DNA from: Proteobacteria bacterium UBA5680
GTDB lineage: Bacteria; Pseudomonadota; Gammaproteobacteria; Arenicellales; UBA5680
Length of the DNA: 64,000 bases
Direction: 5' to 3'
Assembly (NCBI GenBank): GCA_002420425.1
Contig: DIIC01000017.1
Span: 76,052 to 140,051 of the forward strand
The notes under the pieces are model-generated. The model saw only the letters and a program-made list of their open reading frames with translations, made no database searches and had not been told where the DNA came from. A program made the position numbers and the translations under genes. Of the stretch, positions 25,202 to 62,198 are shown piece by piece (within the stretch, counting starts at the first letter, position 1; every line of letters starts with the position of its first letter).

Positions 25202-25203
25202 TT

Positions 25204-30740: not shown

Positions 30741-30747
30741 TTAAATA

Positions 30748-31206: not shown

Positions 31207-31207
31207 T

Positions 31208-34513: not shown

Positions 34514-34543
34514 GTGGCGTAAGGTTTACTCAGTTAAACCTGC

Positions 34544-41583: not shown

Positions 41584-41592
41584 AGTTTCTCC

Positions 41593-42822
41593 TCAATAGG
41601 ACTGGTTGATGGTGGTGACAGGTACTCGGCGGGCTGCTCTCCAGGCGGGCCAGAGACAGGAGAGAATTCCCATAATCCAGACGAAGGATGAGATGGCAAA
41701 TATGATAATCAGATCAAGTTTGGGATAGAGCACTCTCCCGGAGCCAAAAAGATCGGCCCCTGCCGCAAGAGGACCGAGGTCGAGGCCGTTCGTAAAGGCG
41801 TAAATACTCAATATGCTGATCACCATCCCAACAACTACCCCAATCCCCACCATGAAGGCGGCTTCCAGCAGTACCTGGGAGAGAATGAGCCTGGGTTTCA
41901 TGCCCAGCGCCTGGAGCAGGCCGAATTCTCGGGTACGCTCATAGACGGCCATCAGCAGGGTGTTGACCATCCCAAAGGCGATAATAATAAACATAATGAC
42001 GGTCCAGACACCGATCATTGCTGCTGACATCTCCTGCATGGTTTGGGCCAAGGGCTGGAGGTCACTCCAGGTGGATACATCAAGATCTGAAAATACCTGC
42101 TTTAACCGATCAACCTCGCTCTGGACCTCTTCCGGGTTATAAAGGGTGAAGGCGACCTCATGGACAGCATCTTTGATGTCGAGGAGGGATTGGGCTTTTT
42201 GCAGGGTAATGAAGACAAAGCCGAGCTCAATCTCCTCCAAAGAGGCATCAAAGAGTCCAACTACCCTGAGGCCGGATTCTGCTATCTCTCCGCTGCTGTT
42301 CTGGCTGAGGATGACCACCCGCTTTCCGATTCGGGTGTGGAGTCGTTCAGCAAGTCGACGGCCAAGAACAATTTCGGCAGTGTGTCCCTCTTTGGGCTGG
42401 CGGCCACTTGAGAGTTCATTGCCATAGAAGGAGAGGTCAACCTCTCTGGCGGGGTCAAGGCCTATAAGGGTAATCGGAGCACTCTCTCTCTCGCTTCGGA
42501 CAATCCCAGGGACACGGACACGACGGTTCCAGGCCTTAATTTGGGGTGATTCCATGGCCTCATCCAGAGAGGCTGGCGGAAGTGAGAAACGATACTCAAC
42601 ACTGGGATCATCGAGATAGCCCTGCTGGTGTATCTGGCCGTGGCCGGTGAGGTTGTTGGTTGCTTCATGGACAACACTCCCCACCCAGGCATCCATAAAA
42701 GCGGCGAGGGTGATCATTGACCAGACGCCAACAGCGATCGCGGCAAAGGTAATCAGGGTGCGCCGGCTGTTGCGCCACAAACTTCGCCAGGCGATGGGGA
42801 TAATCAGGGTTTTTTGTGTCAT
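41593..42822 (-). CDS. ABC transporter permease, FtsX/MacB-LolC type
   Basis: 409 aa. TM1, a large periplasmic domain, then three C-terminal TMs containing ERTREFGLLQALGMKP. Confidence 0.85.
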   Translation of the reverse strand: MTQKTLIIPIAWRSLWRNSRRTLITFAAIAVGVWSMITLAAFMDAWVGSVVHEATNNLTGHGQIHQQGYLDDPSVEYRFSLPPASLDEAMESPQIKAWNRRVRVPGIVRSERESAPITLIGLDPAREVDLSFYGNELSSGRQPKEGHTAEIVLGRRLAERLHTRIGKRVVILSQNSSGEIAESGLRVVGLFDASLEEIELGFVFITLQKAQSLLDIKDAVHEVAFTLYNPEEVQSEVDRLKQVFSDLDVSTWSDLQPLAQTMQEMSAAMIGVWTVIMFIIIAFGMVNTLLMAVYERTREFGLLQALGMKPRLILSQVLLEAAFMVGIGVVVGMVISILSIYAFTNGLDLGPLAAGADLFGSGRVLYPKLDLIIIFAISSFVWIMGILSCLWPAWRAARRVPVTTINQSY

Positions 42823-42835
42823 TGTCTCTCCAGCC

Positions 42836-44059
42836 CTAGATTTTGCGCATCGCCATTACCGGCTCAAGGCGACGAATACGGAGAATGGGATAGAGGCCGG
42901 CCAGAGCGATAGAGAGGCTGATAAAGAGAGGGCCGGCGAAGAGCGTGAACGGGTGGATGATCGGATAGATTGATCCGGACATGCCAAATTCCGCCATCAT
43001 CTCCTCCATCGCCTCAAAGTAGATTCCCGTCTGGTGGTAGTACTCGGAGATCGCATAGCCAAAGAGCAGGCCGGTCAGCACGCCAAAGAGGATGAGCATC
43101 AGGGTCTCTACCCAGACTACCTTTCCAAGGATTGCTGGTTTCATCCCCAGGGCCATCAGCATCCCAAACTCTCGAGTACGCTCAAGGACTGACATCAGCA
43201 GGCTATTGAGCAGGCTGAAGGTGACAACGATGATAAGGACAACATAGATCAGCAAAGCGGATGACATATCAAGCAGGATCGCCTGTAAAATAGGGGGCTG
43301 GAGTTCAGTCCAGTCAAGGACGACCAGGTTCGAGTCGCTATCGAGGAGAGCGAGGATGTTTTCCTTCTCCTCCTGCAGGGCGATCGCTGAAGCACCCGAG
43401 AGGACGATAGAGTGAGCCTGATCCGGGATTGAAAAGGTCTCTTGAAAACGGGTCAGCGGCATTTCAGCAAACCGGCGATCGATTTCGGGAATACCGGACT
43501 TAAAGAGGCCAATGATCTGGAGGGAGTCTACCGCCATTGATCCGTTAAGCCCCGTACCCAGCAGGGTGACAGCATCTCCCACTTTGAGCCCAAGGTTTTG
43601 TGCCAGACGTTGGCCAAGAATGATCTCGTTATCAGCCCCCTGGGAGAAAAAACGACCTTCGACGATCTTCTTGGGAACTGTGGAGAGTCCGGGTTCATGC
43701 TCGGGTTGAACGCCAATAATCATCGCCCCAAAGCTACGGGTCGGTGAACTCAGCAGCCCGAACCCGTTCGCCCGCCCCCCTGCATGTTTGACTTTAGGGT
43801 TTTGGATGATTTTGCTAAGGAGGTTATTGGGATTGTCTATCGTCTTGCGGATAGAGGGATCCTTTTTATAGCCCTTGACCTGTATCTGGAGATGGCCGTC
43901 AAAGAGGGCCATCGAACTCTCGATCATGCCGAGATAGCCGCCAAACTGGAAGGAGAGCATGAAGACCATCAAAGTGGTGGTCAGAGCGATGGCCAGTGTG
44001 CTCAGAATGGTCCGGCGGGGTTGACGCCAAAGATTGCGCCTTGCCAGGGCAAAGATCAT
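42836..44059 (-). CDS. ABC transporter permease, FtsX/MacB-LolE type (paralogue of the previous gene)
   Basis: 407 aa. Same topology, with ERTREFGMLMALGMKP. Overlaps the upstream gene by 4 nt. Confidence 0.85.
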   Translation of the reverse strand: MIFALARRNLWRQPRRTILSTLAIALTTTLMVFMLSFQFGGYLGMIESSMALFDGHLQIQVKGYKKDPSIRKTIDNPNNLLSKIIQNPKVKHAGGRANGFGLLSSPTRSFGAMIIGVQPEHEPGLSTVPKKIVEGRFFSQGADNEIILGQRLAQNLGLKVGDAVTLLGTGLNGSMAVDSLQIIGLFKSGIPEIDRRFAEMPLTRFQETFSIPDQAHSIVLSGASAIALQEEKENILALLDSDSNLVVLDWTELQPPILQAILLDMSSALLIYVVLIIVVTFSLLNSLLMSVLERTREFGMLMALGMKPAILGKVVWVETLMLILFGVLTGLLFGYAISEYYHQTGIYFEAMEEMMAEFGMSGSIYPIIHPFTLFAGPLFISLSIALAGLYPILRIRRLEPVMAMRKI

Positions 44060-44880
44060 GGTGCCGACCAGGGTCTTGGGTTGCGAAGATTGGATAGGGT
44101 AAAGAGATAACCGGGCAGAGGAATATCAAATCCCCCTTCATGAACTCGTATTTGAGTCCAATGGTCTTCCTCTTCAAGACTGATCATGCGCATCTCAACA
44201 GGGTAGAGCCGTCCACCGAGTAAAGATATGTCGGTAGTGACCATACGTTTTACCGGCACCATATCCTGATCATAGAAGGTCTGCTCAAGAATAATGAAGT
44301 CTTCACGGATAACAATCGTTTGCTTTCCCCACACTACCGGGGATTCGGCCTTGGGAATGGATTCAATGGTATAGAGAGTATGTCCATCCTGGTTTGAGAT
44401 GTCGGTGACAAGATGATCAAAGTTCTGAATGATCTTATCTGATCGAGAGAGGTCGTTATAAGAGAAATCAGATCCCATCCAGGATTGGGACAGCATGCTT
44501 GCCGGCAGTTTGATCACCTGATTGATCTTTGGGGTAAAGATCCACATCCCCTTGTCTAAAGTGAGGGTGGCATTGCCCGCATCCTTTGAGGGTGCTGTGA
44601 AGCGGCCAAGGAAATCTTTCTTTCCCCGGGTCCAGGTCTGGAGTGTGAGTGAGCGCTCCCAGTCAGGACGGTGGACCACCATCTCGGTGACGGAGTAGGA
44701 GTAGTCGGAGCGCCATTGGTCGAGGGTGCCCTCAATCAGTTGCAGCGCCTTCTCTTCATTTGCTTGTGCGATAGAGGTAAAGCAGAAGAGGGCCAGAAAA
44801 ATCAGGGCATAGAATCGATTTTCGAAAAAGCGTCTATACCACGCAGCAGAGAACCTGTTCATCAGTAAATTGTATATCAA
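44056..44880 (-). CDS. periplasmic LolA-like (outer membrane lipoprotein-sorting family) protein
   Basis: 274 aa. Signal peptide ending FTSIAQA. The pattern TLDKGMWIFTPKINQVIKLPASMLSQSWMGSDFSYNDL is typical of the LolA_like family found next to FtsX-type ABC systems. Confidence 0.65.
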   Translation of the reverse strand: MIYNLLMNRFSAAWYRRFFENRFYALIFLALFCFTSIAQANEEKALQLIEGTLDQWRSDYSYSVTEMVVHRPDWERSLTLQTWTRGKKDFLGRFTAPSKDAGNATLTLDKGMWIFTPKINQVIKLPASMLSQSWMGSDFSYNDLSRSDKIIQNFDHLVTDISNQDGHTLYTIESIPKAESPVVWGKQTIVIREDFIILEQTFYDQDMVPVKRMVTTDISLLGGRLYPVEMRMISLEEEDHWTQIRVHEGGFDIPLPGYLFTLSNLRNPRPWSAP

Positions 44881-44989: not shown

Positions 44990-45172
44990 TTACTCTTCCC
45001 TATGACACTTTCCATTGATGCAGGAACAACTCTCGCCGCACCCCTCGCCCTCTTCTTTGTGAATACCAAGTTCTGGGTGGCGCTTTGAGAAGTTGCGTGT
45101 GATCGACTGCACCATCAGCCATGCAAACAACAGGACGAGGATGATTAAAGCAGCAGTGATCACTTTTAACAT
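44990..45172 (-). CDS. single-TM Cys-rich mini-protein (NqrM-like / FeoB-associated Cys-rich type)
   Basis: 60 aa. Reads MLKVITAALIILVLLFAWLMV...EGEGCGESCSCINGKCHREE. Starts 3 nt after the rnfA stop. Confidence 0.6.
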   Translation of the reverse strand: MLKVITAALIILVLLFAWLMVQSITRNFSKRHPELGIHKEEGEGCGESCSCINGKCHREE

Positions 45173-45175
45173 AGG

Positions 45176-45757
45176 TTAACTCCCGAGCCCGGCAAAACCC
45201 ATGAACGAGAGCGAGAGCAGGCCGGCGAGCATAAGGCTGAGGACGGCCCCCTGGCTGACATCGGGAACAAAAGAGAGATCAAGGCGTTCCCGCAGCCCAG
45301 CCATCAGCATAATGGCAAGGGCGAACCCACCGCCAGCGCCCAGACTGTAGACCAGAGATTGAAGAAATGAGTAGTCGCGGAAAGTCTGGAAGAGGGCTAG
45401 TCCAAGAATGGCGCAGTTGGTGGTGATCAGGGGAAGAAATATCCCCAGCGCCCTAAAGAGGGTAGGGCTGAATTTTTTCATCACCATCTCAACCAGTTGC
45501 ACCGCAGAGGCGATGACCGCAATGTAGGCGATCAGCCTGAGGTACTCCATGTCGAGTGCTACCAGCAGAATATTGAGACCAAAGGCACACAGTGAACTGA
45601 CAAACATGACAAAGGTGGTGGCCAGTCCCATATTCCAGGCAGTATTGAGTTTCGCCGATACGCCGAGGAAGGGACAGATTCCAAGGAAGAGGCTGAGCAC
45701 AAAATTATTGATAATGAGTGCATTGAGAAAGATAAATGTCAGGGAGTCAGTGCTCAT
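45176..45757 (-). CDS. rnfA: Rnf complex subunit A
   Basis: Reads MSTDSLTFIFLNALIINNFVLSLFLGICPFLGVS...LITTNCAILG. ATG at 45757, preceded by an AAGGAGG SD. The ORF is open to 45847. Confidence 0.9.
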   Translation of the reverse strand: MSTDSLTFIFLNALIINNFVLSLFLGICPFLGVSAKLNTAWNMGLATTFVMFVSSLCAFGLNILLVALDMEYLRLIAYIAVIASAVQLVEMVMKKFSPTLFRALGIFLPLITTNCAILGLALFQTFRDYSFLQSLVYSLGAGGGFALAIMLMAGLRERLDLSFVPDVSQGAVLSLMLAGLLSLSFMGFAGLGS

Positions 45758-46409
45758 GGTAACCCGCCTCCTTCTCTTGAGATGTTGGTTTCCCTTCCTT
45801 GCGCAAGCGCATCCAGGAGAAGAGGAGCAACCAGGTTCCAAGCACAAAGAAACCGCCCGGCGGAAGTATCATGATTGCCCAGGGTTGGAACGAGTCGCCG
45901 AAGATATTGATGCCGAAGAGGGCGCCGCTTCCAAGAAGTTCACGAACCAGCCCCAGACAGAGCAGAGCGATAGTAAAGCCAAGACCCGTTCCCAGCGCGT
46001 TGATGATGGCTTTCGAAGGGCGGTGCTTTGAAGCATAGGATTCTGCCCGGCCCAGGATAATGCAGTTGACCACGATCAGTTGAATAAAGGCACCCAGTGC
46101 CCGGTAGAGTTCGAGACTGATCGCCTGTATGACGTAGTCGACGATGGTAACAAAAGTGGCGATGATGACAATATAGGTGGCGATGCGCACCTGTTTTGGA
46201 ATTCGATGGCGCAACAGAGAGACCAGAATACTGGAGCATACCAGGACGAAGGTGGTGGCAATGCCCATGGCGAGGGCATTGGCCCCTGAGTTGGTAACGG
46301 CCAGAACCGGACACATTCCAAGGAGCATCACGAAGACGGGGTTCTCTTCCCAGATGCCACGGGTAAAGGTCTCGAGGGTGATCGGCTTATTGGGATGCAG
46401 ATCGACCAT
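45747..46409 (-). CDS. rnfE: Rnf complex subunit E
   Basis: 220 aa. Reads NPVFVMLLGMCPVLAVT...IQLIVVNCIILGRAE. Confidence 0.9.
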   Translation of the reverse strand: MVDLHPNKPITLETFTRGIWEENPVFVMLLGMCPVLAVTNSGANALAMGIATTFVLVCSSILVSLLRHRIPKQVRIATYIVIIATFVTIVDYVIQAISLELYRALGAFIQLIVVNCIILGRAESYASKHRPSKAIINALGTGLGFTIALLCLGLVRELLGSGALFGINIFGDSFQPWAIMILPPGGFFVLGTWLLLFSWMRLRKEGKPTSQEKEAGYHEH

Positions 46410-47089
46410 TATGATTCTTCCTGAGTCAGTTTTTGCAGTTGTTGCATAATCAGTGGGAATGTTTTTTGGGCACTGTTGTTTAACATCCGCCCGATTGCCT
46501 TTGAGGAGACGGTTGCACCTGAAATGGCATCAATCTCCCATGGGTTTGATTTCTTGCCATGCTTAACGGTGACAATCTCGTTATTGAGTCGTTCTCCGGT
46601 GGCATTGAGTCGGCCATCAAGCGCTTCAAAGTTGACAAGAAATTCGGGATCAGTCTCAATTTTATCTCCAAGCCCGGGCGTCTCCTTGCTTTCAAGAACT
46701 GTGATTCCGGTAATACAGCTGCACTTTGGTGAGTAGCCGTAGAGTATTCTTATAATATCCTGATAGCCCTGTGCTGATGCCTCTAGAGCGACACCTGTGA
46801 GCTTCCCTGATAGATCATATCCCGCGTAGACTCTTGGGCCGTCCGTCTGCTGGTCATCAATCCGTTCAAGCCCTTCTGCAGTGAGTGCAAAGTTGATTCT
46901 CGAACGCGCTCCGGGGAGGACGGTAAAGATGGCACGTTCAAGCGCTATCCGGCGGTTTTCCAAAATGGCCGGCAGAGTGAGCTGATAGACAAGAACAACC
47001 AGTACGCCTGAGATCAGGGCAACAACACCAAGGGTTGCTATCAGTGAGAGCGCTGACGGCTGGGTAGAGTGTGGGGAGGGTGAATTCAC
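46409..47089 (-). CDS. rnfG: Rnf complex subunit G (FMN-binding)
   Basis: 226 aa. N-terminal TM. Flavinylation motif DAISGATVSSKA. Confidence 0.88.
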   Translation of the reverse strand: MNSPSPHSTQPSALSLIATLGVVALISGVLVVLVYQLTLPAILENRRIALERAIFTVLPGARSRINFALTAEGLERIDDQQTDGPRVYAGYDLSGKLTGVALEASAQGYQDIIRILYGYSPKCSCITGITVLESKETPGLGDKIETDPEFLVNFEALDGRLNATGERLNNEIVTVKHGKKSNPWEIDAISGATVSSKAIGRMLNNSAQKTFPLIMQQLQKLTQEES

Positions 47090-48165
47090 GATTCCTCTTT
47101 TTGCCGACGATTGAACAGCGATCTTCGCTCTTTACCATAGGCTCTTGGCTGGGTAAGCGATGCAATGAGAGGGGAGGCGGCATTACCCAGCAGAATCGCA
47201 TACATAATGCCTTCAGGGAGGCCACCGAAGAAGCGGATAGTGACGGTGAGCACTCCTATCAGAATGGCATAACTCCACACCCCCAGAGGAGTAAGCGGTG
47301 AAGCCACCATGTCTGTGGCCATAAAGATAGCGCCGAGCATCATTCCGCCTGAAAGAAGAGTAAACAGTGGGGGGGGATAGAGATCGGGGTTGATCAGATA
47401 GAAGAGTGCGCTAAAAAGGGCAGAAGAGAGAAGGATGCCGACAGGAATACGCCAGTCAAGCATTTTTCGAAAAGCAAGATAGAGGCCGCAGGCCATGATC
47501 AACAGCGCAGAGGACTCTCCTGCCGAACCTGAGGTCATTCCCATCAGTAGGTCTATCGTGCTGGTCTGGATCTGTTCAAATTTTTGGAGTGCAAGGGGTG
47601 TGGCGCCAGTGAAACCGTCAATGGCATTGGCGTTGATCCACTCTGCGGGAGAGATGGGCTTGAGAAAAGGCAGGGTCAAAGTGGAGGGGACAAACTCACT
47701 AAACCGGCCGGGGATGAATGCAGGGGTCCAGGTGGTGATGGCTACAGGAAATGCAGCCTGGACAAAGGCACGGCCTACCAGTGCCGGGTTGAGGATGTTG
47801 TATCCCAGGCCGCCAAAGATGACTTTACCCAGTGCGATGGCAATAAACCCGGCAACGGCTGCCATCCAGAGTGGAAAACCCGGGGGCAGGGTGAGGGCGA
47901 GGAGAAGGCCTGTAATCACCGCACTGAAGTCATGCAGTGATGAAGCCCGGTCGCTCACTCTCATAAAGAGATGTTCAGTGGCAAGGCAACTGGCTGTGGT
48001 AACAACAATAAGCGCAAGCGCACTCAAACCAAACTGATAGATGCCAAACAGCGAGATTGGCACAAGGGCATAGACCACATTACGCATGATTTGAGAGACA
48101 CTCGGCGCATAGTGAATATGGGGAGAAGTGCGTATCTCAACACGAGCATTTAGGCGTTTTTTCAT
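47086..48165 (-). CDS. rnfD: Rnf complex subunit D
   Basis: 359 aa, polytopic. Contains DGFTGATPL and the NqrB/RnfD pattern. Confidence 0.9.
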   Translation of the reverse strand: MKKRLNARVEIRTSPHIHYAPSVSQIMRNVVYALVPISLFGIYQFGLSALALIVVTTASCLATEHLFMRVSDRASSLHDFSAVITGLLLALTLPPGFPLWMAAVAGFIAIALGKVIFGGLGYNILNPALVGRAFVQAAFPVAITTWTPAFIPGRFSEFVPSTLTLPFLKPISPAEWINANAIDGFTGATPLALQKFEQIQTSTIDLLMGMTSGSAGESSALLIMACGLYLAFRKMLDWRIPVGILLSSALFSALFYLINPDLYPPPLFTLLSGGMMLGAIFMATDMVASPLTPLGVWSYAILIGVLTVTIRFFGGLPEGIMYAILLGNAASPLIASLTQPRAYGKERRSLFNRRQKEES

Positions 48166-49511
48166 GCGGTTATCAGCTGTTCACGATTGATGGCTTTGGC
48201 AATTCTAAAGTACTGTACCAGTGGGATGGAGGAGGGGCAGACATAACTGCAGCAACCGCATTCAAAACAGTCATTCAGATGAAACTCCTCTTCCATCGCC
48301 TGGTATTGACGTTTGGCCGCCAGAAGACCAAGTTGTGACGGATTGAGCTTTAGAGGACAGGCCTGGAGACATCTGCCACATTTTATACAGGGGTCTGCAT
48401 TTTTTGGGTGCTCATCTATCTTGCGCTCTTCAGCGAGGACAATAATCCCCCCCACTGCTTTTGTCACCGGGACATCGAGCGAGGCCACTGAGGAGCCCAT
48501 CATTGGACCACCGAGTATAAGGTGGTTGGCCGTTCCGGAGAATCCAACGTAGTCAAGAAGCTGGCGAATGGGGGTGCCCAGAGGAGTGAGATAGTTGCCC
48601 GGTTTTTTAACACCCGGCCCGGTTACGGTCACCACACGTTCAATCAGGCCCCGCCTTAACGGCATGAGTGTGCCCAGTTGGGCGAGGGTAGCTACGTTAT
48701 GGACAATCACCCCAACCTGATAGGGAAACCCTCCGGAGGGGACCTCGCGACCGGTCAACGTGGTTATCAGCATTTTTTCAGATCCCTGGGGATATTTTGT
48801 TTCGAGCAGCCTTGCTGAAATTGGGCTCTTGTCAGGGAGTCGCATCTTGATCGCATGGAAGGCGTCTCCTTTATTGTTCTCAAGGCCGATGATCGCCTGT
48901 TTTGCCCCTGATAACTTCATCACAAGCTGAATGCCGGAGATTATCTCATCGGCGTGTTCGATCATTAAACGGTGGTCCGCAGTGAGGAAGGGTTCACACT
49001 CACAGCCATTGGCGATTACGGTATCGATAATCGTCCCCGGAGGAGTCGCGAGTTTGACGTGGAGGGGGAAGGCAGCCCCTCCAAGACCAACAATACCGGT
49101 ATCCTGGACGGCTGTGATCAACTCATTTCTATCGAGCCGGCTATAATCCTGCGGCGCCCCATAGAGCACTTTCTGCCCCGCTCCAGGATGGGGCCGAACA
49201 ATAATGCTTTTGGTTTTGGGACCTTTAGCCGTCGGTGTGAGTTCAATCCCGGCAATAACACCGGTTACCGGTGAGTGCATCGGAACGGAGACAAATCCAC
49301 TCGCTTTAGCAATGGGCTCACCCCTGACAACCTCCTGCCCCCTATGGACAATGGGTTCGGCCGGTGCCCCGATGTGCTGTGAGAGAGGAATAATCAACTC
49401 ATCAGCAAAAGGGAGCCGTTTTATCGGCAGCCTGTTGGTGAACTTATTCCCTGGCGGGTGTATGCCGTGTGGAAAACTGTTGCGCCACGCCCGGTGAATA
49501 AGTCCTGCCAA
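48162..49511 (-). CDS. rnfC: Rnf complex subunit C (NADH-binding, 2x[4Fe-4S])
   Basis: 449 aa. Motifs GLGGAAFP, CIKCGRCLQACP and CFECGCCSYVCPS. TTG start, with a GGAGA SD 6 nt upstream. Located 33 nt after the giant gene. Confidence 0.9.
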   Translation of the reverse strand: MAGLIHRAWRNSFPHGIHPPGNKFTNRLPIKRLPFADELIIPLSQHIGAPAEPIVHRGQEVVRGEPIAKASGFVSVPMHSPVTGVIAGIELTPTAKGPKTKSIIVRPHPGAGQKVLYGAPQDYSRLDRNELITAVQDTGIVGLGGAAFPLHVKLATPPGTIIDTVIANGCECEPFLTADHRLMIEHADEIISGIQLVMKLSGAKQAIIGLENNKGDAFHAIKMRLPDKSPISARLLETKYPQGSEKMLITTLTGREVPSGGFPYQVGVIVHNVATLAQLGTLMPLRRGLIERVVTVTGPGVKKPGNYLTPLGTPIRQLLDYVGFSGTANHLILGGPMMGSSVASLDVPVTKAVGGIIVLAEERKIDEHPKNADPCIKCGRCLQACPLKLNPSQLGLLAAKRQYQAMEEEFHLNDCFECGCCSYVCPSSIPLVQYFRIAKAINREQLITA

Positions 49512-49544
49512 TGCAATTCTCCAATAACTTAAATTTTCTATCGA

Positions 49545-52500
49545 CTACTGAAATTTTGCGGCTCGTTTGATCAATTTATCAACACCTTTTTCAACCGAAT
49601 TGAAGGGTGTTCCAGGATGAATACAGCCAGCAGTACATTTTTCTGCAGCACGAACAATATCTTTATAGGAGCCACCCTGTGGATCAAGAACATAGGCAAG
49701 GTTCTGATCATCATAGGAGAAGATTTTGGGGTTGATGTCAATACACTCATCACAAGTGGTGCATTCTGATGTTTCAATCCAGACGGGTTCAAATCCAGTA
49801 TCTGTTGAAGCGGGTGTCGAACCGTTCAATCCAGAACTCGTAGAACCGGCCACGCCCTCTGCAAGGGCGGCTGAGAGTTGTGATGCGTTCCCATTGGCGG
49901 TCATGGCAACAAGGCCTGATGAAATTTTTTCGATCATCTCCATCCTGACCGTATTGGCAATCTGATCGGCATCTACAGCTTCATTGATCCCAGAGATCGA
50001 TTTGAGCTGTCGCCAGAAATGCCGTCGTTCCTCTGTGGAGGCGACCAGTTCAGCAGAAGGGACAACTCGCACCAGTTCATTTTTCTTCCCTATGGTCCAG
50101 ATATAGGGGATAAGGTCTTCCCGGTCATCACTCTCCAGATCAAGAAAATCAACCAGTGGGATCATGTTCTCGTCATCCCAGGTCTCTTTCGGGGGGATAC
50201 GAAACTGTTTTCTGAACCGACCTTCGGTGACCGCAAAATCAGCAAAGGTGAAGGGGAGTTCCAGCTTCTGCTCGGAACCTTCTTCTTCCTTATAGGTGAG
50301 GGAATAGACCGGCCAATCATCATCTAAGGCCGGGTTGCCCTCTAGATCAATACACTCCTCCCAGGTCTCACCACTATCAGGATCAAACCGAAGGAGTGGA
50401 TAGGCCCTCGATTCAACAGCCATTTTGCTCTGCAACTCTGATGCATCATCACCAACGCCGTGTTCGGGCTGGCAGACGGAATAGATATTGAATAGCGCGG
50501 GGCGACGTGAATTGAGGCCATCGATATAGCCTTCAAGAAGATGGGTGATATTGGAGATCGATCCTTGTAGTACGTAGGATGTTCGATGGGCCATGCCAAT
50601 CAGTGACATCTCCTTGCGGATCTCCTCTTTACCGTGTTGGGCAGAGCCATAAGGGGTCATGTCGGCAACCTGACTGATGAATCCTGAAGTACAGGCCTGG
50701 CCGCCGGTATTGGAGTAGACCTGGGTATCGAGTACCAGAACCTTGATTGGCATTCCTGACATCATCATCCTCGAGAGATTTTGAAATCCGATGTCATACA
50801 TTGCACCATCACCGCCGATAGAGACCACTGGCGGGCAGAGGAGGAACTCCTCTTCGGAGAACTGGCGCCAGTCAAACATGGTGAAAAAGGGATCATGCTC
50901 TTTGGGGTTATATTTTCCTTCGAGTTCAAGTTCGGCCATCCGGATGGCCTTGAACCCTTCTGCCATCTTGACCATGTGTCCTTCAAAAAGACCCATCGCA
51001 ACCGAGGGTGAATCCTGAAAGAGATGGCTGGTCCAGGGGAAAGGATAGGGGTTATAGGGGAAGGTGGATCCCCAGACAGAGGTGCAACCGGTAGCATTGA
51101 CAATACCCATCGCAGAACGACCCTGATTGGTGTTGCCATCGGTATAGAGCCAGCGCAGGTGTTTGAGTGTATTCAAAAGCTGAGTGACCCACTGAACCCA
51201 CTCACTGTCAAGCGGCTGACTGCTGTCGTGTTCCAGTGCAGAAGAGAGCTCGGAGAGGGTGAGGTCTGACTCCTGGTGATTGCTGATCACTCCCTGGATG
51301 GTCTCCGTATCTCCAAGATCCATCCCTTTGGCCATCTGCAGACGGATATGGTTGTCGAGGCGATTGATCAAATCATCAATTTTATCGATATGATTGCGAA
51401 CGCGCGGTTGCATCAAAGTGGTCATGGTAGCGGTAAAGAGATGGATGACGGTTTTTTCACCGCAACCCAGACACGCTCCATCCCCGCATATCATCGAGTC
51501 GTAAGCCTGTTTATTCAGGAGCAGTGTCTCCAGTGCACCGATCTTCTCATCAAGATCATCGATGCGGCTGAATTGGGGTGAGGTAGTGGGAAGGTCAAGC
51601 CAGTACTCCCAGTTCTTTTTCAGGGAGGCAACCGCATCCTCAGTTTGGGTAACGGTAACCAGTGCGTCATCATCACAGACGGAGACACACTCCATACACC
51701 CTTTACAGGTGTAGGGGTTGACGGTGATTGAAAAGAGTCCCCCACTGCCCTTGCCCCGTTTTTCAAGGACAGACCAGTAGGGTTTGGTGATTGAGAACTG
51801 GAAGTCAACGAGTTGATCGCGAAACTGATTAAACTCCTGTTCCAGCAGTTGTTTGTCCTCAACTTCAAGTACCGTCTCGTTGAGAGTGACGTCAATCGCC
51901 TGGTCGATGGAGGCTCTTACCGGTGTCCCGGGGCCATCCTCTTCACTAATTAGAGTTCGGAGTTTTTTCTCAACAGTACGCAGTCCACGACGAAGATGTT
52001 TGGTGGTTACCCCCTGGCGTTCAACCCGGCGGACAGTCGTCTCAAAGACCTCACTGACAGTATTGACCAGTCCCGGAATAGCACTGTCCGGACAAACGGT
52101 ATAACAGTCACCACAGGCGGTGCAGTTATCGGCAATCCATTCGGGGTATTCGAAGCGGATCTGAGTCATGTCTCTGAATACACCCGTTGCCGCTGGCACC
52201 AGGCTGAGGCCGATGTGGGGATCAACAAGGTTGTCGCTTCCTTTGCCGCGAGAGTAGAAGTTTCCGGTCTGTTCCCAGAAGCGGTGAATGTCAGTACGCA
52301 CTTCACTGCTTGTGGGTTGTTGCCTGAGCAGAATGGGCATGGCTGGAATCACCCGGAGCTCATCACCCTCTGGCAGGATCACCGGCTTGTCGGTGATCTC
52401 CCGGGTCTCATCAAAGCCTCGAGTCACAACCCGCATATTGTCTTCAACAATCGTTCGTCCCTTGGTTCCGAATTTGCTCTCCATCTGGTTGCGAATCGCC

Positions 52501-54488
52501 TGAAAGAGGGATTTGCGGTTGAGGTTGGCGGATTCCATGACCTTTGATGCAGCGAAAAAGGCCCCTTGAAAGGCGTTACCTTGCATGCGGAATTGAAGTT
52601 CAATATCAGACGCCTCTTCTCTGGCAATCTTGAAGGCATCCACAAAGAAGACCCTGATCTCATTATCAGTAATATACTGCCTGGCCGAGAAGGGGAGGGA
52701 GCGCCAGAGGAGATCGGCATCATCCGTATCACTCTGGATAATAAAGACTCCACCTTTGGTAAGACCGTTAAGGGGGTTGGAGTGCTTAAAGACATTGGGG
52801 TCTGGTGAGAGCACCACATCAACATAGATGTATTCACTATTGACCCGAATGGGTTCGGGTGCAGCAGAGAGATAGTAGGTCGTTGGTTGTCCTTTCTTCT
52901 CTGAGCCGTATTTTGGGTTGGCCTTGATGTGGTAGTCGAGGAGTTCATAGAGCGTCAGTGCCAAATTCTTGCCAGTGGTAATGGCGCCCCATCCTCCTAC
53001 TGAATGGAGGCGAACGGTTATGCATCCTTCAGGCATAAGGTTGGGGTTTTCACTCCCCTTGAGGGAGAGTGAGCCTATTTCGGGATAGGCCTCACGCAAT
53101 TGATCCTGATAGATCTCCTGTTTGGGTGTATCGGGATCCTTGCTCAGAAAGTCGACCGAGAGATAGAAGAATTTCTTTTTTTCACCATCAGGAAGCATAT
53201 TCTCCACCGCACCAATTATCCCTTCAGGCTGGAGATCACGACTGCCCAATCCAAAAGAGGCAGAGTAGAGGGGCGGCATATCCCCAGGTTTGTTAAATGC
53301 CGGATAGGCGGGATGGGGGAGAGACTCCCTGCGGTCTACAAAATTTTCAGTGCACTTTGCCAGACTTGCCCGAATTTCACGAATCAGTGGCAGATCTTCA
53401 GCCAGCGGCTGGTCGGTTCGCTCAAGGACAACAACCCCTTTACGACCCTTAAGGAGTGTACCGACAAGCTCTCCCGGGAAGGGGCGAAACATAGTGATGT
53501 TGATGACACCAATTTTGAGTTTTCGGGTCTTTCTAAGGTAGTCGGCCACCGCTTCTGCAGTACAGAGAACGCTGCCCTGGGCGACGATCAGATAGTCCGC
53601 ATCATCGGTTCGATAAGAGGAGACTCGCTGGTATTGCCTTCCGGTGAGCTGATAGAACGCTTCCATCGCCTCTTCGGTGATCTCTGTAAGGTGGTCAAAG
53701 AAGAAAGGGCGTTGGGCCGCCACTGCCTGCATATAGGCATCCTGGTTCTGTACTGTTCCGGACTGCAGTGGGTTATCGACATCCCAGACAGTGGGTATGC
53801 GACGGCGTTGTGGGCCATAGACCAGGCGCTGGGCCGGTGTGGGGGTCTCAATAATGTCCTCAGGTCTTCCAAGGAAGGTGTCGATGAGCGCTCTTTCAGG
53901 AAGGAGGAGAGACTCAATCAGATGGGTGGTCAAAAAGCCATCCTGGCCGACAATGCCGGGGGTCAGGGCGTGTTCAGCGATTTTGTGGGCGATAATGTTG
54001 AGGTCGCAGGCCTCCTGGGCGCTCTTGGCCATCACCTGAAAGAAGCCGGTGTCGTCTACAGCATGGTAGTCGTCATGGCCGGCATGGACATTGAGGCTCG
54101 CCTTGGTGATCGCCCGGCAACCCACATTGAGAATATAGGGGAGACGCTTGCCCACAGCCGCATAGAGAGACTCATGCATATAGGCGATACCCTGGCCTGA
54201 AGAGAAGTTGGTGGCTCTGAGACCGGTCATCGAGAGACCGGCTGTTACCGCGGCCGCCGCATGCTCGCCCTCAGGCTCGATAAAGATCAGGGGGCGACCG
54301 GAAATATTGATATGGCCTTTGCTGCGCTCTTCTGCCCAATACTCGCCCATCTGGGTTGATGGGGTGATGGGATAGGCGCCAGCACCATCCGTAGATTCTC
54401 GCTCACACATAATGACGGCTGTATTCCCGTCCATAGCCTGTTTAACACCTGGAAAGGGGAAGGTTTTGCTGGCTTTTTTCATCATCAT
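49545..54488 (-). CDS. PFOR-like 2-oxoacid:ferredoxin oxidoreductase, expanded 1647-aa form with a tethered C-terminal ferredoxin domain
   Basis: Collinear with nifJ motifs: GAYPITPSTQMGE; CTACGDCYTVCP ... CKGCMECVSVCDDDA; CLGCGEK; NATGC; GGDGAMYDIG...LDTQVYSNTGGQ. Adds a Ser/Gly/Ala/Thr linker and a final CTTCDECIDINP...C(TAG)CIHPG single-cluster ferredoxin pattern. Confidence 0.85.
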   Translation of the reverse strand: MMMKKASKTFPFPGVKQAMDGNTAVIMCERESTDGAGAYPITPSTQMGEYWAEERSKGHINISGRPLIFIEPEGEHAAAAVTAGLSMTGLRATNFSSGQGIAYMHESLYAAVGKRLPYILNVGCRAITKASLNVHAGHDDYHAVDDTGFFQVMAKSAQEACDLNIIAHKIAEHALTPGIVGQDGFLTTHLIESLLLPERALIDTFLGRPEDIIETPTPAQRLVYGPQRRRIPTVWDVDNPLQSGTVQNQDAYMQAVAAQRPFFFDHLTEITEEAMEAFYQLTGRQYQRVSSYRTDDADYLIVAQGSVLCTAEAVADYLRKTRKLKIGVINITMFRPFPGELVGTLLKGRKGVVVLERTDQPLAEDLPLIREIRASLAKCTENFVDRRESLPHPAYPAFNKPGDMPPLYSASFGLGSRDLQPEGIIGAVENMLPDGEKKKFFYLSVDFLSKDPDTPKQEIYQDQLREAYPEIGSLSLKGSENPNLMPEGCITVRLHSVGGWGAITTGKNLALTLYELLDYHIKANPKYGSEKKGQPTTYYLSAAPEPIRVNSEYIYVDVVLSPDPNVFKHSNPLNGLTKGGVFIIQSDTDDADLLWRSLPFSARQYITDNEIRVFFVDAFKIAREEASDIELQFRMQGNAFQGAFFAASKVMESANLNRKSLFQAIRNQMESKFGTKGRTIVEDNMRVVTRGFDETREITDKPVILPEGDELRVIPAMPILLRQQPTSSEVRTDIHRFWEQTGNFYSRGKGSDNLVDPHIGLSLVPAATGVFRDMTQIRFEYPEWIADNCTACGDCYTVCPDSAIPGLVNTVSEVFETTVRRVERQGVTTKHLRRGLRTVEKKLRTLISEEDGPGTPVRASIDQAIDVTLNETVLEVEDKQLLEQEFNQFRDQLVDFQFSITKPYWSVLEKRGKGSGGLFSITVNPYTCKGCMECVSVCDDDALVTVTQTEDAVASLKKNWEYWLDLPTTSPQFSRIDDLDEKIGALETLLLNKQAYDSMICGDGACLGCGEKTVIHLFTATMTTLMQPRVRNHIDKIDDLINRLDNHIRLQMAKGMDLGDTETIQGVISNHQESDLTLSELSSALEHDSSQPLDSEWVQWVTQLLNTLKHLRWLYTDGNTNQGRSAMGIVNATGCTSVWGSTFPYNPYPFPWTSHLFQDSPSVAMGLFEGHMVKMAEGFKAIRMAELELEGKYNPKEHDPFFTMFDWRQFSEEEFLLCPPVVSIGGDGAMYDIGFQNLSRMMMSGMPIKVLVLDTQVYSNTGGQACTSGFISQVADMTPYGSAQHGKEEIRKEMSLIGMAHRTSYVLQGSISNITHLLEGYIDGLNSRRPALFNIYSVCQPEHGVGDDASELQSKMAVESRAYPLLRFDPDSGETWEECIDLEGNPALDDDWPVYSLTYKEEEGSEQKLELPFTFADFAVTEGRFRKQFRIPPKETWDDENMIPLVDFLDLESDDREDLIPYIWTIGKKNELVRVVPSAELVASTEERRHFWRQLKSISGINEAVDADQIANTVRMEMIEKISSGLVAMTANGNASQLSAALAEGVAGSTSSGLNGSTPASTDTGFEPVWIETSECTTCDECIDINPKIFSYDDQNLAYVLDPQGGSYKDIVRAAEKCTAGCIHPGTPFNSVEKGVDKLIKRAAKFQ

Positions 54489-54591
54489 ATCTGGTGTGTC
54501 CTTTTACAAAATCAACCCTGATAAAAAAACAAACTGACAAGCGTGTCTGAAACGGCACTCGGTGCAGGGTAAATCTTGGATATTTCCTATG

Positions 54592-54631
54592 TATTAATCA
54601 AACCAATTATTTCAATTCTTATGATTAAATT
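54592..54631 (-). promoter_or_regulatory. conserved AT-rich element upstream of the giant PFOR-like gene (copy B)
   Basis: 30 of 40 ungapped identities with 55611-55650, including the exact blocks AATTATTTCAAT and ATGATTAAA. Lies 104-143 nt upstream of the ATG at 54488. Confidence 0.45.
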
Positions 54632-54681
54632 ATGCAATACTATATAATGAGGTGGGTGCCTTGAGCGTTCATTGCAAGGGG

Positions 54682-55560
54682 TTATCTGATAACGGGCATC
54701 GGCTCTTTTCGAATTACCCGTTTTGCCATATTTCCCTTGACGACCCCTTTACGGCTATCAAGCCAGACAATGGCCCCCGTTGGGCAGCGTTCAATAGCTA
54801 TTTTCGAGGCCAGGTCATTTTTTTCATAATCGATTTGGGCCAGATTGGCCTGAATGGTGATCAACCCTTCAGGGGCATCGGCGGCGCATCGACTGCAGGC
54901 ATTGCAGACGACTTCACATTCCGCTTCCGCCGCATCGCAGGTATCCTCGTTTTTACACGCGATCCAGAGGCGATGGCTGACAGGTTGAAGGGAGAAGAGT
55001 TCCTTGGGGCAGACTTCGACACAGTCATTGCAGGCGGTACATTTGAGTGGATCCACCATTGGTAGTGAGAATTTGTTCATTTCAATGGCGCCAAAATCAC
55101 ATACATCCATGCAGTCACCAAAGCCAAGACAACCCCATGTGCACCCCTTACCACCTCCAGAGACAAGATTGGCGGCCCGACAGGTCTCCATCCCCTGATA
55201 GTTTGCACGGGTATAGGAAACGTGAGTTCCGCCGGAACAGGCAAGGCGGGCTACATATTTTTCATGTTCTCCTACCTCAACACCGAGAAAATCAGCGATA
55301 GTGTGGGTCATCTCATTGGAATTTACGGTGCATTTCCCCGGATCGGTATCACCTTTGACCATTGCTTCAGCAAAGGGTCGGCACCCAGGAGTGCCACACG
55401 CCCCGCAATTGGCGTGAGGGAGCATATCCTCCACCTCCTCAATTCGAGGATCTTCGTAGACATAGAGTTTGCGGTTTGCAATCGCCAGAATACCAGCCAG
55501 CACCACACCCAGGGTGGCAAGAAGGCTGCCTGCAATAGCAATGTTAATCAGACTGTCCAT
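54682..55560 (-). CDS. rnfB: Rnf complex subunit B (membrane-anchored polyferredoxin)
   Basis: From ATG 55560: MDSLINIAIAGSLLATLGVVLAGILAI (TM anchor). RnfB Fe-S domain CGACGTPGCRPFAEA. Further Cys clusters follow, including CTACNDCVEVCP. The ORF is open to 55656, but that part is AT-rich and matches a non-coding element elsewhere. Confidence 0.82.
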   Translation of the reverse strand: MDSLINIAIAGSLLATLGVVLAGILAIANRKLYVYEDPRIEEVEDMLPHANCGACGTPGCRPFAEAMVKGDTDPGKCTVNSNEMTHTIADFLGVEVGEHEKYVARLACSGGTHVSYTRANYQGMETCRAANLVSGGGKGCTWGCLGFGDCMDVCDFGAIEMNKFSLPMVDPLKCTACNDCVEVCPKELFSLQPVSHRLWIACKNEDTCDAAEAECEVVCNACSRCAADAPEGLITIQANLAQIDYEKNDLASKIAIERCPTGAIVWLDSRKGVVKGNMAKRVIRKEPMPVIR

Positions 55561-55610
55561 AATTTTCTGCGTTAGGGCTTCTACTTGGCTAATTTTTTGG
55601 GCTACACTAG

Positions 55611-55650
55611 TATTTATCAATGTAATTATTTCAATGAAAATGATTAAAAA
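55611..55650. promoter_or_regulatory. conserved AT-rich element in the rnfB/apbE divergent intergenic region (copy A)
   Basis: TATTTATCAATGTAATTATTTCAATGAAAATGATTAAAAA. Matches copy B as described. Lies 51-90 nt upstream of rnfB ATG 55560 and 10-49 nt upstream of apbE ATG 55660. Confidence 0.45.
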
Positions 55651-55659
55651 GGACAATAC

Positions 55660-56700
55660 ATGATCAGAAGAACCCTTTTTGCTGCACCCACTCTATTATG
55701 GGTGGGCTGTTACCTGCTACTCGGGGGGTGTACTCCTACCACCCAAGAATTTACTCGAGCCGTTATCGAAGGCAAAACCATGGGCACCTACTATAAGGTG
55801 GTTCTCTCAGTTGAGGAGGGAAGAGAGGTCGGACCTTCACTTAAAGAGGGGATCGATGCTGTGCTTGAAAAGGTCAATGACCAGATGTCGACCTACAGAA
55901 AAGAGTCTGAGCTCTCCCGCTTCAACCGCTCTCAATCCACCGAGTGGATAACGGTCTCGGAGGATCTGGTAGACGTCGCTGATGCAGCGGCAAAGATCAG
56001 TGAACTCAGCCACGGTGCTTTTGATGTGACGGTGGGTCCTCTGGTCAATCTCTGGGGTTTTGGACCGGTAAAAAAGAAGGACTTTATCCCCAGCGACCAG
56101 GAGATTGAAGAGGCAAAAAAGAGGGTGGGCTACCAACAGCTCTCAACCCGGAAGGTGGACCCGGCATTGCGCAAGAGCAGCCCAGGGCTCTATGTTGATC
56201 TCTCGGCGATTGCCAAGGGTTTTGGTGTCGACATGGTGGGTGAGCTTCTTGAATCAGAGGGATTTAACCACTACCTCGTCGATATCGGCGGTGATATGAA
56301 AGCGGTGGGCAACAACCCCGATGGACAGGGGTGGCGGATTGGCATTGAACGCCCCGACGCAGAGGGGAGAGAGATTGAGAAACTGATTGAAGTGAAAAAT
56401 TTCGGTGTTGCCACATCGGGCGACTATCGCAACTATTTTGAGCGCGATGGCCAACGCTACTCACACACCATCAATTCCGTGACGGGCAGGCCGATCACCC
56501 ATCGACTCGCATCGGTAACCGTCGTCGCACCTACGGCCACAGAGGCCGATGGAATGGCGACCGCGATCATGGCGCTTGGCCCTGAACAGGGGCTTAAACT
56601 TGCCAAAGAGCAGGGACTCGGTGTCTTTTTGCTGGTAAGGGAGGGAGAAGGCTTTAGCGAGAGTATGAGCCCCGGTTTTGAGCAGTTTCAAACAGAGTAG
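55660..56700 (+). CDS. apbE: FAD:protein FMN transferase ApbE (lipoprotein)
   Basis: 346 aa. Lipobox LLLGGC. Contains GKTMGTYYKV...MSTYRKESELSRFN...AKGFGVD...GVATSGDYRNYF. Confidence 0.88.
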   Translation: MIRRTLFAAPTLLWVGCYLLLGGCTPTTQEFTRAVIEGKTMGTYYKVVLSVEEGREVGPSLKEGIDAVLEKVNDQMSTYRKESELSRFNRSQSTEWITVSEDLVDVADAAAKISELSHGAFDVTVGPLVNLWGFGPVKKKDFIPSDQEIEEAKKRVGYQQLSTRKVDPALRKSSPGLYVDLSAIAKGFGVDMVGELLESEGFNHYLVDIGGDMKAVGNNPDGQGWRIGIERPDAEGREIEKLIEVKNFGVATSGDYRNYFERDGQRYSHTINSVTGRPITHRLASVTVVAPTATEADGMATAIMALGPEQGLKLAKEQGLGVFLLVREGEGFSESMSPGFEQFQTE

Positions 56701-62189: not shown

Positions 62190-62198
62190 CAGAATATT

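Follow-up and report, generated by a model that had tools for sequence, protein, structure and literature searches.

A 1647-aa gene resembling pyruvate:ferredoxin oxidoreductase (PFOR) lies between rnfB and rnfC in a stretch of DNA from Proteobacteria bacterium UBA5680 (64,000 nucleotides of contig DIIC01000017.1, referred to as the window). Rnf complexes exchange electrons between ferredoxin and NAD+ and move ions across the membrane. The question is whether this arrangement is a local accident or the signature of a dedicated unit, in which a 2-oxoacid:ferredoxin oxidoreductase (OFOR) and an ion pump work together. The original prediction favoured the latter. In principle, such a unit could run in either direction, towards 2-oxoacid oxidation or towards 2-oxoacid synthesis.

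Organisation and conservation of the locus

All gene calls, coordinates and overlaps of the original prediction were confirmed. On the minus strand, rnfB (54682-55560) has an ATG start and encodes 292 aa with PF04060 and Fer4 domains (TIGR01944, 88 bits against a cutoff of 69). It is followed by the OFOR gene (49545-54488) and, 33 nt after the OFOR stop, by rnfC (48162-49511), the NADH/FMN-binding subunit, which has a TTG start preceded by a GGAGA Shine-Dalgarno sequence (TIGR01945, 492 bits). The remaining genes are rnfD (47086-48165; TIGR01946, 302 bits), rnfG (46409-47089; PF04205, 61 bits; TIGR01947, 96.7 bits, just under its cutoff of 102), rnfE (45747-46409; TIGR01948, 235 bits against a cutoff of 213) and rnfA (45176-45757; TIGR01943, 233 bits against a cutoff of 229). 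The last of these starts with ATG at 45757, preceded by a GGAGG Shine-Dalgarno sequence. The genes overlap by 4 nt (C/D), 4 nt (D/G), 1 nt (G/E) and 11 nt (E/A). Flavinylation motifs are present in RnfG (SGATVSS, residue 190) and RnfD (TGATPL, residue 186).

A 60-aa open reading frame (44990-45172, minus strand) follows rnfA after a 3-nt gap. It encodes a conserved membrane protein with one transmembrane helix, followed by the motif RHPE[FL]G..[RK]E.G.GCG..C.C....C. Homologues follow rnfA in many loci, in at least 45 of 62 by a motif heuristic. No Pfam or NCBIfam family matches, NqrM included; the protein is a candidate Rnf Fe-S maturation or accessory factor. The apbE gene (55660-56700, plus strand), encoding the FAD:protein FMN transferase, is divergent from rnfB (PF02424, 314 bits; NF007774, 351 bits, below its equivalog cutoff of 498). 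Its adjacency is not a conserved feature of the module; among the loci surveyed, a divergent apbE-like hit was seen only in three (L025, L028 and L040).

The original prediction would have failed if homologues of the large gene were usually found away from rnf genes. The outcome was the opposite. In 80 loci from about nine phylum-level groups, rnfC lies immediately downstream in 68 of 68 assessable cases and the full rnfCDGEA in 61 of 63, while rnfB lies immediately upstream in 71 of 76. Three of the five exceptions are Bacteroidota with rnfB at the end of the same operon. By record titles, the hosts include Gamma- and Betaproteobacteria, Acidobacteriota, Verrucomicrobiota/Kiritimatiellae, Spirochaetota, Hydrogenedentota, Calditrichota, KSB1 and Bacteroidota, plus SAR324, and at least 577 matching stretches were found in species-representative genomes. 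Five of five distant relatives sampled, with 28-35% identity over the C-terminal half, keep rnfB upstream, and rnfCDGEA downstream where the contig allows, with overlapping stop and start codons. The arrangement is thus far beyond chance. The 193-nt AT-rich gap between rnfB and the OFOR gene (54489-54681) is longer than the other junctions and might have hinted at a chance or recent insertion in this genome only, but this possibility is refuted by the synteny survey. The median for this gap in other loci is 62 nt, and junctions across loci are short, with medians of 62 and 78 nt. Promoter and terminator scans gave chance-level counts and nothing in the 193-nt gap, and no convincing terminator was found in the window's junctions.

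The layout itself is not entirely unreported. Dmytrenko et al. (PMC4287430) noted in 2014, in one sentence of a genome annotation, a PFOR located between rnfB2 and rnfC2 of the rnf2 cluster (rnfBCDGEA) in the Solemya velum symbiont, and suggested pyruvate as an electron donor. This is very likely the same module. That paper describes neither the unusual architecture of the enzyme nor its conservation across phyla, and reports no experiment on it; no characterisation was found.

Architecture of the large oxidoreductase and of RnfB

The enzyme is a large single-chain PFOR-type 2-oxoacid:acceptor oxidoreductase with domain order I-II-III-V-VI plus family-specific additions; its Pfam domains are POR_N, PFOR_II, POR, Fer4, TPP_enzyme_C and a C-terminal Fer4_13. 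The domain order is shared with the single-chain PFORs of Desulfovibrio africanus (1B0P) and M. thermoacetica (6CIN), of the NifJ/YdbK type, and the fold of domain VI matches. All 12 canonical cluster cysteines, the ligands of three [4Fe-4S] clusters, are invariant. The equivalents of D. africanus PFOR Thr31, Glu64, Arg114, Cys840, Asp963, Thr991, Val993 and Asn996, which include the TPP-, Mg- and substrate-binding residues, are conserved, while Ile123 and Ile843 are both replaced by Val.

Compared with canonical PFORs, the protein is about 450 residues longer, and it is only 25-28% identical to 6CIN/1B0P and to the canonical PFOR of the window (21632-25201; TIGR02176, 1720 bits against a cutoff of 911), which is not rnf-linked. 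The large protein scores only 410 bits against the same cutoff. Family lengths are fixed at 1606-1683 aa. In an alignment of the window protein with 80 family members, insert 1 (about residues 805-915; 51744-52076, minus strand), between the two [4Fe-4S] motifs of ferredoxin domain V, is mostly gapped in canonical PFOR. Insert 2 (about residues 1020-1125; 51114-51431, minus strand) lies in domain VI and is absent from canonical PFOR. It is predicted to be a helical bundle with one very long helix; the AF2 model, which is only moderate overall (mean pLDDT 67.7), places helices at model residues 12-56 and 96-117 with pLDDT up to 90. No structural counterpart was found in the PDB.

The C-terminal extension includes a variable, low-complexity linker (about residues 1521-1565; 49794-49928, minus strand). 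Its mean family conservation is 0.20, against 0.6-0.8 elsewhere, and pLDDT is below 50 for residues ~1532-1570, so that it is predicted to be disordered. Behind it lies a ferredoxin domain (about residues 1566-1647; 49548-49793, minus strand), which matches D. africanus ferredoxin I (1DAX, E 1.8e-6). As the original prediction held, the enzyme does bring its own extra ferredoxin domain: Cys1576, 1579, 1582 and 1618 are 100% conserved, have no counterpart in canonical PFOR and provide a fourth 4-Cys cluster motif.

RnfB is the long, membrane-anchored polyferredoxin of the anaerobe type, with 21 Cys. Residues 8-264 align to the Acetobacterium woodii protein (9ERI_B, E 7e-51) and to that of Clostridium tetanomorphum (7ZC6_B), and RnfC is closest to the clostridial one (7ZC6_C, E 4e-110). 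The CDGEA order is also that of these anaerobes (rnfCDGEAB), as had been proposed, and they share the flavinylation motifs. In the present module, however, rnfB has moved upstream and is separated from rnfC by the OFOR gene, RnfB lacks the last two A. woodii ferredoxin repeats, the small Cys-rich membrane protein follows rnfA, and the hosts are largely respiring Proteobacteria and other non-clostridial phyla. In 70 orthologues of RnfB, 20 Cys are invariant, lengths are 287-307 aa, and a basic C-terminal tail (KG..A[KR]...R...LP) is conserved. The Rnf of Azotobacter and Rhodobacter (8AHX; rnfABCDGE(H)) is paired with a specific low-potential consumer, nitrogenase, and runs in the gradient-driven reverse direction. 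It differs in its order, in its short RnfB (174 aa; only the N-terminus of the present RnfB aligns to Azotobacter 8AHX_B), in using soluble ferredoxin or flavodoxin as carrier, and in having no OFOR in the operon.

Electron transfer, substrate and direction

The explanation preferred here, with moderate confidence, is that the segment encodes one functional unit. The enzyme would use TPP and CoA to interconvert a small aliphatic 2-oxoacid, most likely pyruvate, with acyl-CoA plus CO2. Electrons would run through the three canonical clusters to the fourth, in the tethered ferredoxin domain, which would deliver them to the RnfB polyferredoxin in place of a soluble ferredoxin; Rnf would then pass them to NAD+ at RnfC while moving Na+ or H+ across the membrane. 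Direct exchange with RnfB and physical or kinetic coupling are inferred, as are the substrate, the direction and the coupling ion. No experimental or expression data bear on this gene; the 'PFOR-like' gene of the Riftia co-expression study is a different protein.

Alternatively, the two systems may be co-regulated but not hard-wired, sharing an operon because both act on the cellular ferredoxin pool, with the extra cluster as just one more relay within the enzyme. Genes of one pathway commonly share operons without their products forming a complex, and operon membership alone is compatible with exchange through soluble ferredoxin. The window also encodes an aldehyde:ferredoxin oxidoreductase besides the canonical PFOR, which implies that a soluble pool exists. 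Moreover, the ferredoxin domain is present in only 17 of 57 distant full-length representatives; 40 of 57 lack it, and those sampled are still rnfB-linked, so the tether cannot be the sole or original basis of the coupling. On the other hand, retention of the position between rnfB and rnfC down to 28% identity is unusually strict for simple co-regulation, both the OFOR and RnfB are tightly length-constrained with family-specific additions, and a covalently tethered ferredoxin makes a soluble carrier redundant. This alternative is considered unlikely.

The assignment of pyruvate rests on a handful of pocket residues. The two Ile to Val changes give a slightly larger pocket, an invariant family-specific Cys1266 lies near the active site, the score is below the PFOR equivalog cutoff, and the distant clade is flanked by methylcrotonyl-CoA-carboxylase-like, enoyl-CoA hydratase and HMG-CoA lyase genes, suggestive of leucine catabolism. 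Another substrate, such as 2-oxobutyrate or a branched-chain 2-oxoacid, with a role in amino-acid catabolism or synthesis, is therefore conceivable but doubtful. The carboxylate and carbonyl binders (Thr31, Arg114 and Asn996 equivalents) and a hydrophobic pocket are retained, with no basic residue evident for a distal carboxylate, and the best structural and sequence matches are all PFORs. The genes for PEP synthase (10 loci) and its regulator PpsR (8 loci), which lie just downstream in sulfur-oxidising Gammaproteobacteria and Novimethylophilus, also point to pyruvate.

The same neighbours bear on direction, which is unresolved. They fit a route from acetyl-CoA via pyruvate to PEP, in which Rnf uses the ion gradient and NADH to reduce the clusters of the OFOR, and the enzyme works as a carboxylating pyruvate (2-oxoacid) synthase feeding gluconeogenesis or C2 assimilation. 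Many hosts are respiring chemolithoautotrophs or denitrifiers, expected to keep a high membrane potential, and the canonical PFOR in the window could leave this copy free to specialise in the reverse reaction. This reductive reading, described first in the original prediction, remains possible but is not better supported than the oxidative one. The cluster is equally conserved in organoheterotrophic lineages with no obvious need for pyruvate synthase (Kiritimatiellae, Hydrogenedentota, Calditrichota, Bryobacteraceae, Cyclobacteriaceae and Spirochaetaceae), the distant clade sits among catabolic genes, and PEP synthase is also needed for growth on pyruvate or lactate. A plant-type ferredoxin-NADP+ reductase gene follows rnfA and the small protein in 19 of 59 assessable loci by script count (about 20 on inspection), and in Bacteroidota lies inside the operon. 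This fits downhill flow from reduced ferredoxin to NADP+, although it also suggests that the reduced ferredoxin domain may serve more than one acceptor.

The proposed net reaction, 2-oxoacid + CoA + NAD+ <-> acyl-CoA + CO2 + NADH, would be coupled to the ion gradient. With E0' of about -500 mV for acetyl-CoA+CO2/pyruvate and -320 mV for NAD+/NADH, about 35 kJ per 2 electrons is left, enough for roughly two ions; the coupled reaction would be close to equilibrium and therefore reversible. Taken together, the near-invariant arrangement suggests an uncharacterised machine coupling 2-oxoacid chemistry to NADH and the membrane potential. We lean towards oxidative, energy-conserving operation under oxygen limitation as the family-wide role, with reversal to gradient-driven pyruvate synthesis available to autotrophs.

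Conservation of the rnf-linked gene order

An ORF map and profile searches confirm every gene named in the original prediction. On the minus strand, rnfB (54682-55560) is followed by a gene for a 1647-aa PFOR-like protein (the large OFOR; 49545-54488), rnfC (48162-49511), rnfD (47086-48165), rnfG (46409-47089), rnfE (45747-46409), rnfA (45176-45757) and a 60-aa ORF (44990-45172); apbE (55660-56700) is divergent. The fine details of the original prediction are also right: the overlaps from rnfC to rnfA are 4, 4, 1 and 11 nt, with a 3-nt gap before the small ORF, and GGAGA precedes the TTG start of rnfC, 33 nt after the large gene. Scans for promoters and terminators gave chance-level counts and no terminator in either junction flanking the large gene, and hence do not inform either way on whether the OFOR is separated from rnfB or rnfC. 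Immediately downstream of the small ORF, also on the minus strand (40891-44880), lie a LolA-like lipoprotein-sorting protein (44056-44880), two LolC/E-type permeases (42836-44059 and 41593-42822) and an ABC ATPase (40891-41583), which are not conserved next to the cluster in other loci.

The large protein has more than 120 full-length relatives at 65-71% identity. When the 80 best loci were searched with the window's Rnf proteins, rnfC was found immediately downstream on the same strand in 68 of 68 assessable loci, complete rnfCDGEA downstream in 61 of 63, and rnfB immediately upstream in 71 of 76. Three of the five rnfB exceptions are Bacteroidota (L077, 18885-21039; also L078 and L080), in which the operon reads OFOR-rnfCDGEA-small Cys-rich protein-FNR-rnfB, with a plant-type ferredoxin-NADP+ reductase (FNR) gene thus inside the operon. 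By record titles, the hosts include Gammaproteobacteria (Ca. Venteria, Sedimenticola, Thiohalomonas, Chromatiaceae and tubeworm symbionts), Betaproteobacteria (Sulfuritalea, Rhodocyclaceae, Thiobacillus, Hydrogenophilus and Novimethylophilus), Acidobacteriota, Verrucomicrobiota/Kiritimatiellae, Spirochaetota, Hydrogenedentota, Calditrichota, KSB1 and Bacteroidota; SAR324 is added by the search for relatives of the protein. At least one carrier, Novimethylophilus kurashikiensis strain La2-4 (L050), has a strain designation rather than a MAG label. One Calditrichales contig (L079, 442-4848) carries a second rnfCDGEA set with no OFOR, about 4 kb upstream of the rnfB-OFOR-rnfCDGEA cluster, which shows that OFOR-linked and plain Rnf paralogues can coexist side by side.

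An exhaustive search with the family-specific C-terminal half of the protein found many representatives of ~1450-1680 aa at only 28-51% identity. Five of these, at 28-35% identity, were looked up; all five have an RnfB-type gene directly upstream and, where the contig allows, rnfCDGEA directly downstream with overlapping stop and start codons. The linkage is a defining property of the whole clade, and a chance or local insertion of the gene is rejected by this synteny survey. The original prediction had proposed that its functional unit would fall if homologues of the large gene were usually found away from rnf; this criterion therefore fails to refute it, and the candidate dedicated Rnf/OFOR module is supported at the comparative-genomic level.

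Architecture of the large oxidoreductase

The protein has the domain order I-II-III-V-VI of single-chain PFORs, with Pfam matches to POR_N (36-273), PFOR_II (297-379), POR (498-693), Fer4 (~782-807) and TPP_enzyme_C (from 1220), and it aligns collinearly with the solved PFORs 6CIN and 1B0P and with the canonical PFOR of the window. However, it is only 25-28% identical to these three proteins. Its score against the PFOR equivalog model (TIGR02176, NifJ/YdbK-type pyruvate:ferredoxin/flavodoxin oxidoreductase) is 410 bits, matched in three pieces, against a cutoff of 911, whereas the window's canonical PFOR scores 1720 bits. The large OFOR thus belongs to a distinct subfamily and is not the housekeeping PFOR.

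The canonical enzyme (1189 aa; 21632-25201, plus strand) overlaps at its stop with a 'dihydroorotate dehydrogenase-like protein' gene (PRK07565, 408 bits), a PFOR partner gene of unknown role; the two together span 21632-26196. It is directly followed on the plus strand (26326-36960) by an anaerobic phenol-degradation-like gene set: a PEP-synthase-like N-terminal protein (26326-27393), a UbiD-family protein scoring above the phenylphosphate carboxylase beta cutoff (27452-28852), a HAD hydrolase (28849-29667), a UbiX-type flavoprotein (30156-30740), an AMP-binding CoA ligase (31064-32503), a 615-aa PEP-utiliser mobile-domain protein (32666-34513) and a tungsten-type aldehyde:ferredoxin oxidoreductase (34750-36960). 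This set is unexpected for a marine Arenicellales and implies several ferredoxin-dependent anaerobic enzymes.

In an alignment of the window protein with the 80 locus-derived family members and the canonical PFOR, the twelve Cys of the three canonical [4Fe-4S] clusters (Cys789/792/795/799, 928/931/934/938 and 1006/1009/1135/1339) all align to Cys in canonical PFOR and are 100% conserved in the family. Lengths are tightly constrained, at 1606-1683 aa. Three family-specific additions are apparent: an insert between the two cluster motifs of domain V (~805-915), an insert in domain VI (~1020-1125), and a C-terminal extension (~1440-1647). The extension ends in a ferredoxin-like domain (Fer4_13; match to D. 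africanus ferredoxin I, E 1.8e-6), in which Cys1576, 1579, 1582 and 1618 are 100% conserved and have no counterpart in canonical PFOR; this is a fourth cluster. It is preceded by the least conserved stretch of the protein (1521-1560, conservation 0.20).

An AF2 model of residues 1000-1647 is of moderate quality (mean pLDDT 67.7) and gives no inter-cluster distances. In this model, the insert in domain VI is predicted as a helical bundle with a long helix, residues ~1532-1570 have pLDDT below 50, and the ferredoxin module refolds after the linker (pLDDT 60-74), which fits a ferredoxin on a flexible tether. A fold search with the C-terminal model returned only PFOR domain VI, with nothing for the inserts or the extension.

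The catalytic residues are intact. In D. africanus numbering (Chabriere et al.), with the register checked against the 1B0P alignment, the equivalents of Thr31, Glu64, Arg114, Leu121, Cys840, Asp963, Thr991, Val993 and Asn996 are retained; T42, E75 and R125 correspond to the first three in the N-terminal alignment, and the TPP/Mg2+ motif (GDG...N) is found as GGDG...DTQVYSNTGGQ, aligned to 1B0P 958-1000. Ile123 and Ile843 of the methyl pocket are both replaced by Val. The enzyme therefore looks active on pyruvate or another small aliphatic 2-oxoacid, and a substrate other than pyruvate, although less likely, remains among the main alternatives. In addition, Cys1266 (50691-50693) is invariant in the family where canonical PFORs have Ser (position 1002 in D. 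africanus numbering); it lies six residues after the substrate-binding Asn in the YSNTGGQ motif.

Rnf subunits, the small membrane protein and recurrent neighbours

All six Rnf subunits are encoded together. The NCBIfam models for rnfA, rnfB, rnfC, rnfD and rnfE score above their cutoffs; rnfG scores 96.7 against 102, but Pfam FMN_bind is above its cutoff. The threonine flavinylation motifs are present as SGATVSS in RnfG (residue 190) and TGATPL in RnfD (residue 186), and a gene for the flavin transferase ApbE is adjacent. However, apbE is adjacent in only a few loci and is not supported as a conserved member of the module. Just beyond apbE and an EamA-family transporter lies an NAD-linked formate dehydrogenase set on the minus strand (57823-63188), comprising the alpha subunit with a NuoG-like N-terminus (57823-60543), a NuoF-like subunit (60540-62189) and FdhD (62199-63188), another NADH-coupled low-potential enzyme next to the rnf cluster.

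RnfB is the long polyferredoxin type: residues 8-264 align to A. woodii RnfB (E 7e-51) and to C. tetanomorphum RnfB, while only the N-terminus aligns to the short Azotobacter RnfB. RnfC is closest to the clostridial subunit. Across 70 cluster-linked RnfB sequences, 20 Cys are invariant and lengths are 287-307 aa. A conserved basic tail (KG..A[KR]...R...LP) lies beyond the end of the alignment to A. woodii RnfB (333 aa), whose remaining C-terminal sequence aligns only weakly to the Fe-S region of the window's protein.

The 60-aa ORF is a real, conserved gene, found after rnfA in at least 45 of 62 loci. Its product has one TM helix followed by RHPE[FL]G..[RK]E.G.GCG..C.C....C and matches no curated Pfam or NCBIfam family. 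NqrM (PF04400), the small Cys-containing membrane factor needed for the intramembrane Fe-S centre of Na+-NQR (PMC12174285), gave no hit even at E <= 10, and the only hint was a non-significant hit to the FeoB-associated Cys-rich membrane protein family (E 0.53). The resemblance to NqrM, one TM helix plus a conserved Cys cluster, is architectural only.

The neighbouring genes tie the module to the ferredoxin and pyruvate/2-oxoacid node. A divergently transcribed LysR-family regulator lies upstream in 25 loci. FNR follows rnfA and the small protein on the same strand in 19 of 59 assessable loci by script count, or about 20 on inspection, and these loci span many phyla. PEP synthase (10 loci) and its regulator PpsR (8 loci) lie downstream in sulfur-oxidising Gammaproteobacteria and Novimethylophilus. 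The distant clade (loci L081 and L082) is flanked by leucine-catabolism-like genes. These neighbours pull in both directions: FNR and the catabolic genes favour oxidation, whereas PEP synthase favours pyruvate synthesis. The same module running mainly as a pyruvate synthase is one of the main rival readings.

In the distant loci L081 (18238-22944), L082 (18080-22785) and L084 (1723-7158), rnfB-OFOR-rnfCDGEA clusters are also accompanied by a trio of KorA-like, KorB-like and a ~840-aa protein with a Fer4_13 domain. Proteins of about 840-870 aa among the representatives match the C-terminal half of the large OFOR, and the same gene order appears as KorA(3)/KorB(3)/'PFOR-like ferredoxin' in the Riftia symbiont. 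This trio may be a split, three-gene version of the same idea.

Proposed coupling and its significance

The best-supported reading is a dedicated unit, in which the OFOR interconverts a 2-oxoacid plus CoA with acyl-CoA plus CO2, electrons travel through three clusters to the tethered fourth cluster and from there to RnfB, and Rnf exchanges them with NAD(H) at RnfC while translocating Na+ or H+. Docking, substrate, direction and coupling ion are inferred. From established thermodynamics, about -500 mV against -320 mV leaves about 35 kJ per electron pair, roughly two ions, so the reaction is readily reversible. The tether as the sole basis of the coupling is weakened by the finding that 40 of 57 distant full-length representatives lack the ferredoxin domain (for example those of loci L083, L084 and L085). 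Many of these end instead in a different recurring peptide (...LL.L.GY...DPEFF.QSLREF...), which may be an alternative docking element. Those sampled are still rnfB-linked; the association with Rnf is therefore older than the tether. Simple co-regulation, with a soluble ferredoxin as intermediate, is a further rival.

A more far-reaching possibility, which can be advanced only tentatively, is that the large OFOR docks permanently on RnfB and forms a membrane-bound supercomplex, an ion-translocating pyruvate (2-oxoacid):NAD+ oxidoreductase that needs no free ferredoxin. The conserved linkage agrees with such physical hard-wiring, while the tethered ferredoxin and the family-specific RnfB tail are suggestive only. 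The helical inserts, the RnfB tail and, in relatives lacking the ferredoxin, the C-terminal peptide would be the docking elements. The supercomplex would conserve, or when reversed consume, the ~180 mV between the 2-oxoacid couple and NAD+; it would be an energy-conserving alternative to pyruvate dehydrogenase and, in reverse, a gradient-powered pyruvate synthase, widespread in bacteria of redox-transition habitats.

Both parts belong to known families, the PFOR superfamily (though not the NifJ/YdbK equivalog) and an anaerobe-type Rnf. In full-text searches, one direct precedent was found: Dmytrenko et al. 2014 (PMC4287430) noted a PFOR located between rnfB2 and rnfC2 in the Solemya velum symbiont and suggested pyruvate as an electron donor. 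Genome papers on Thiomargarita, tubeworm symbionts, Kentron and Allochromatium, and a 2025 RNF/NQR review, mention Rnf without this feature. The 'PFOR-like' gene of the Riftia co-expression study (PMC11636981) is a different gene, the 'PFOR-like ferredoxin' following KorA(3)/KorB(3), and there are no usable expression data for the large OFOR. In the full-text searches made, no description of the enzyme's special architecture, no account of the cross-phylum invariance of the linkage and no biochemical work were found. The arrangement is not categorically new; what differs from the known families is this architecture and the conserved linkage.

Rnf and PFOR are each textbook enzymes, and they are usually thought to communicate through a diffusible ferredoxin pool. 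A module in which Rnf always comes with its own specialised 2-oxoacid oxidoreductase, complete with a built-in ferredoxin on a leash, would define a new type of respiratory or anaplerotic complex at the pyruvate/acetyl-CoA node. It would also explain what the enigmatic 'second rnf' does in sulfur-oxidising symbionts, Beggiatoaceae, Rhodocyclaceae, Acidobacteriota, Kiritimatiellae and others. Pyruvate oxidation would yield extra ion-motive force, or CO2 would be assimilated into pyruvate at the expense of the gradient.
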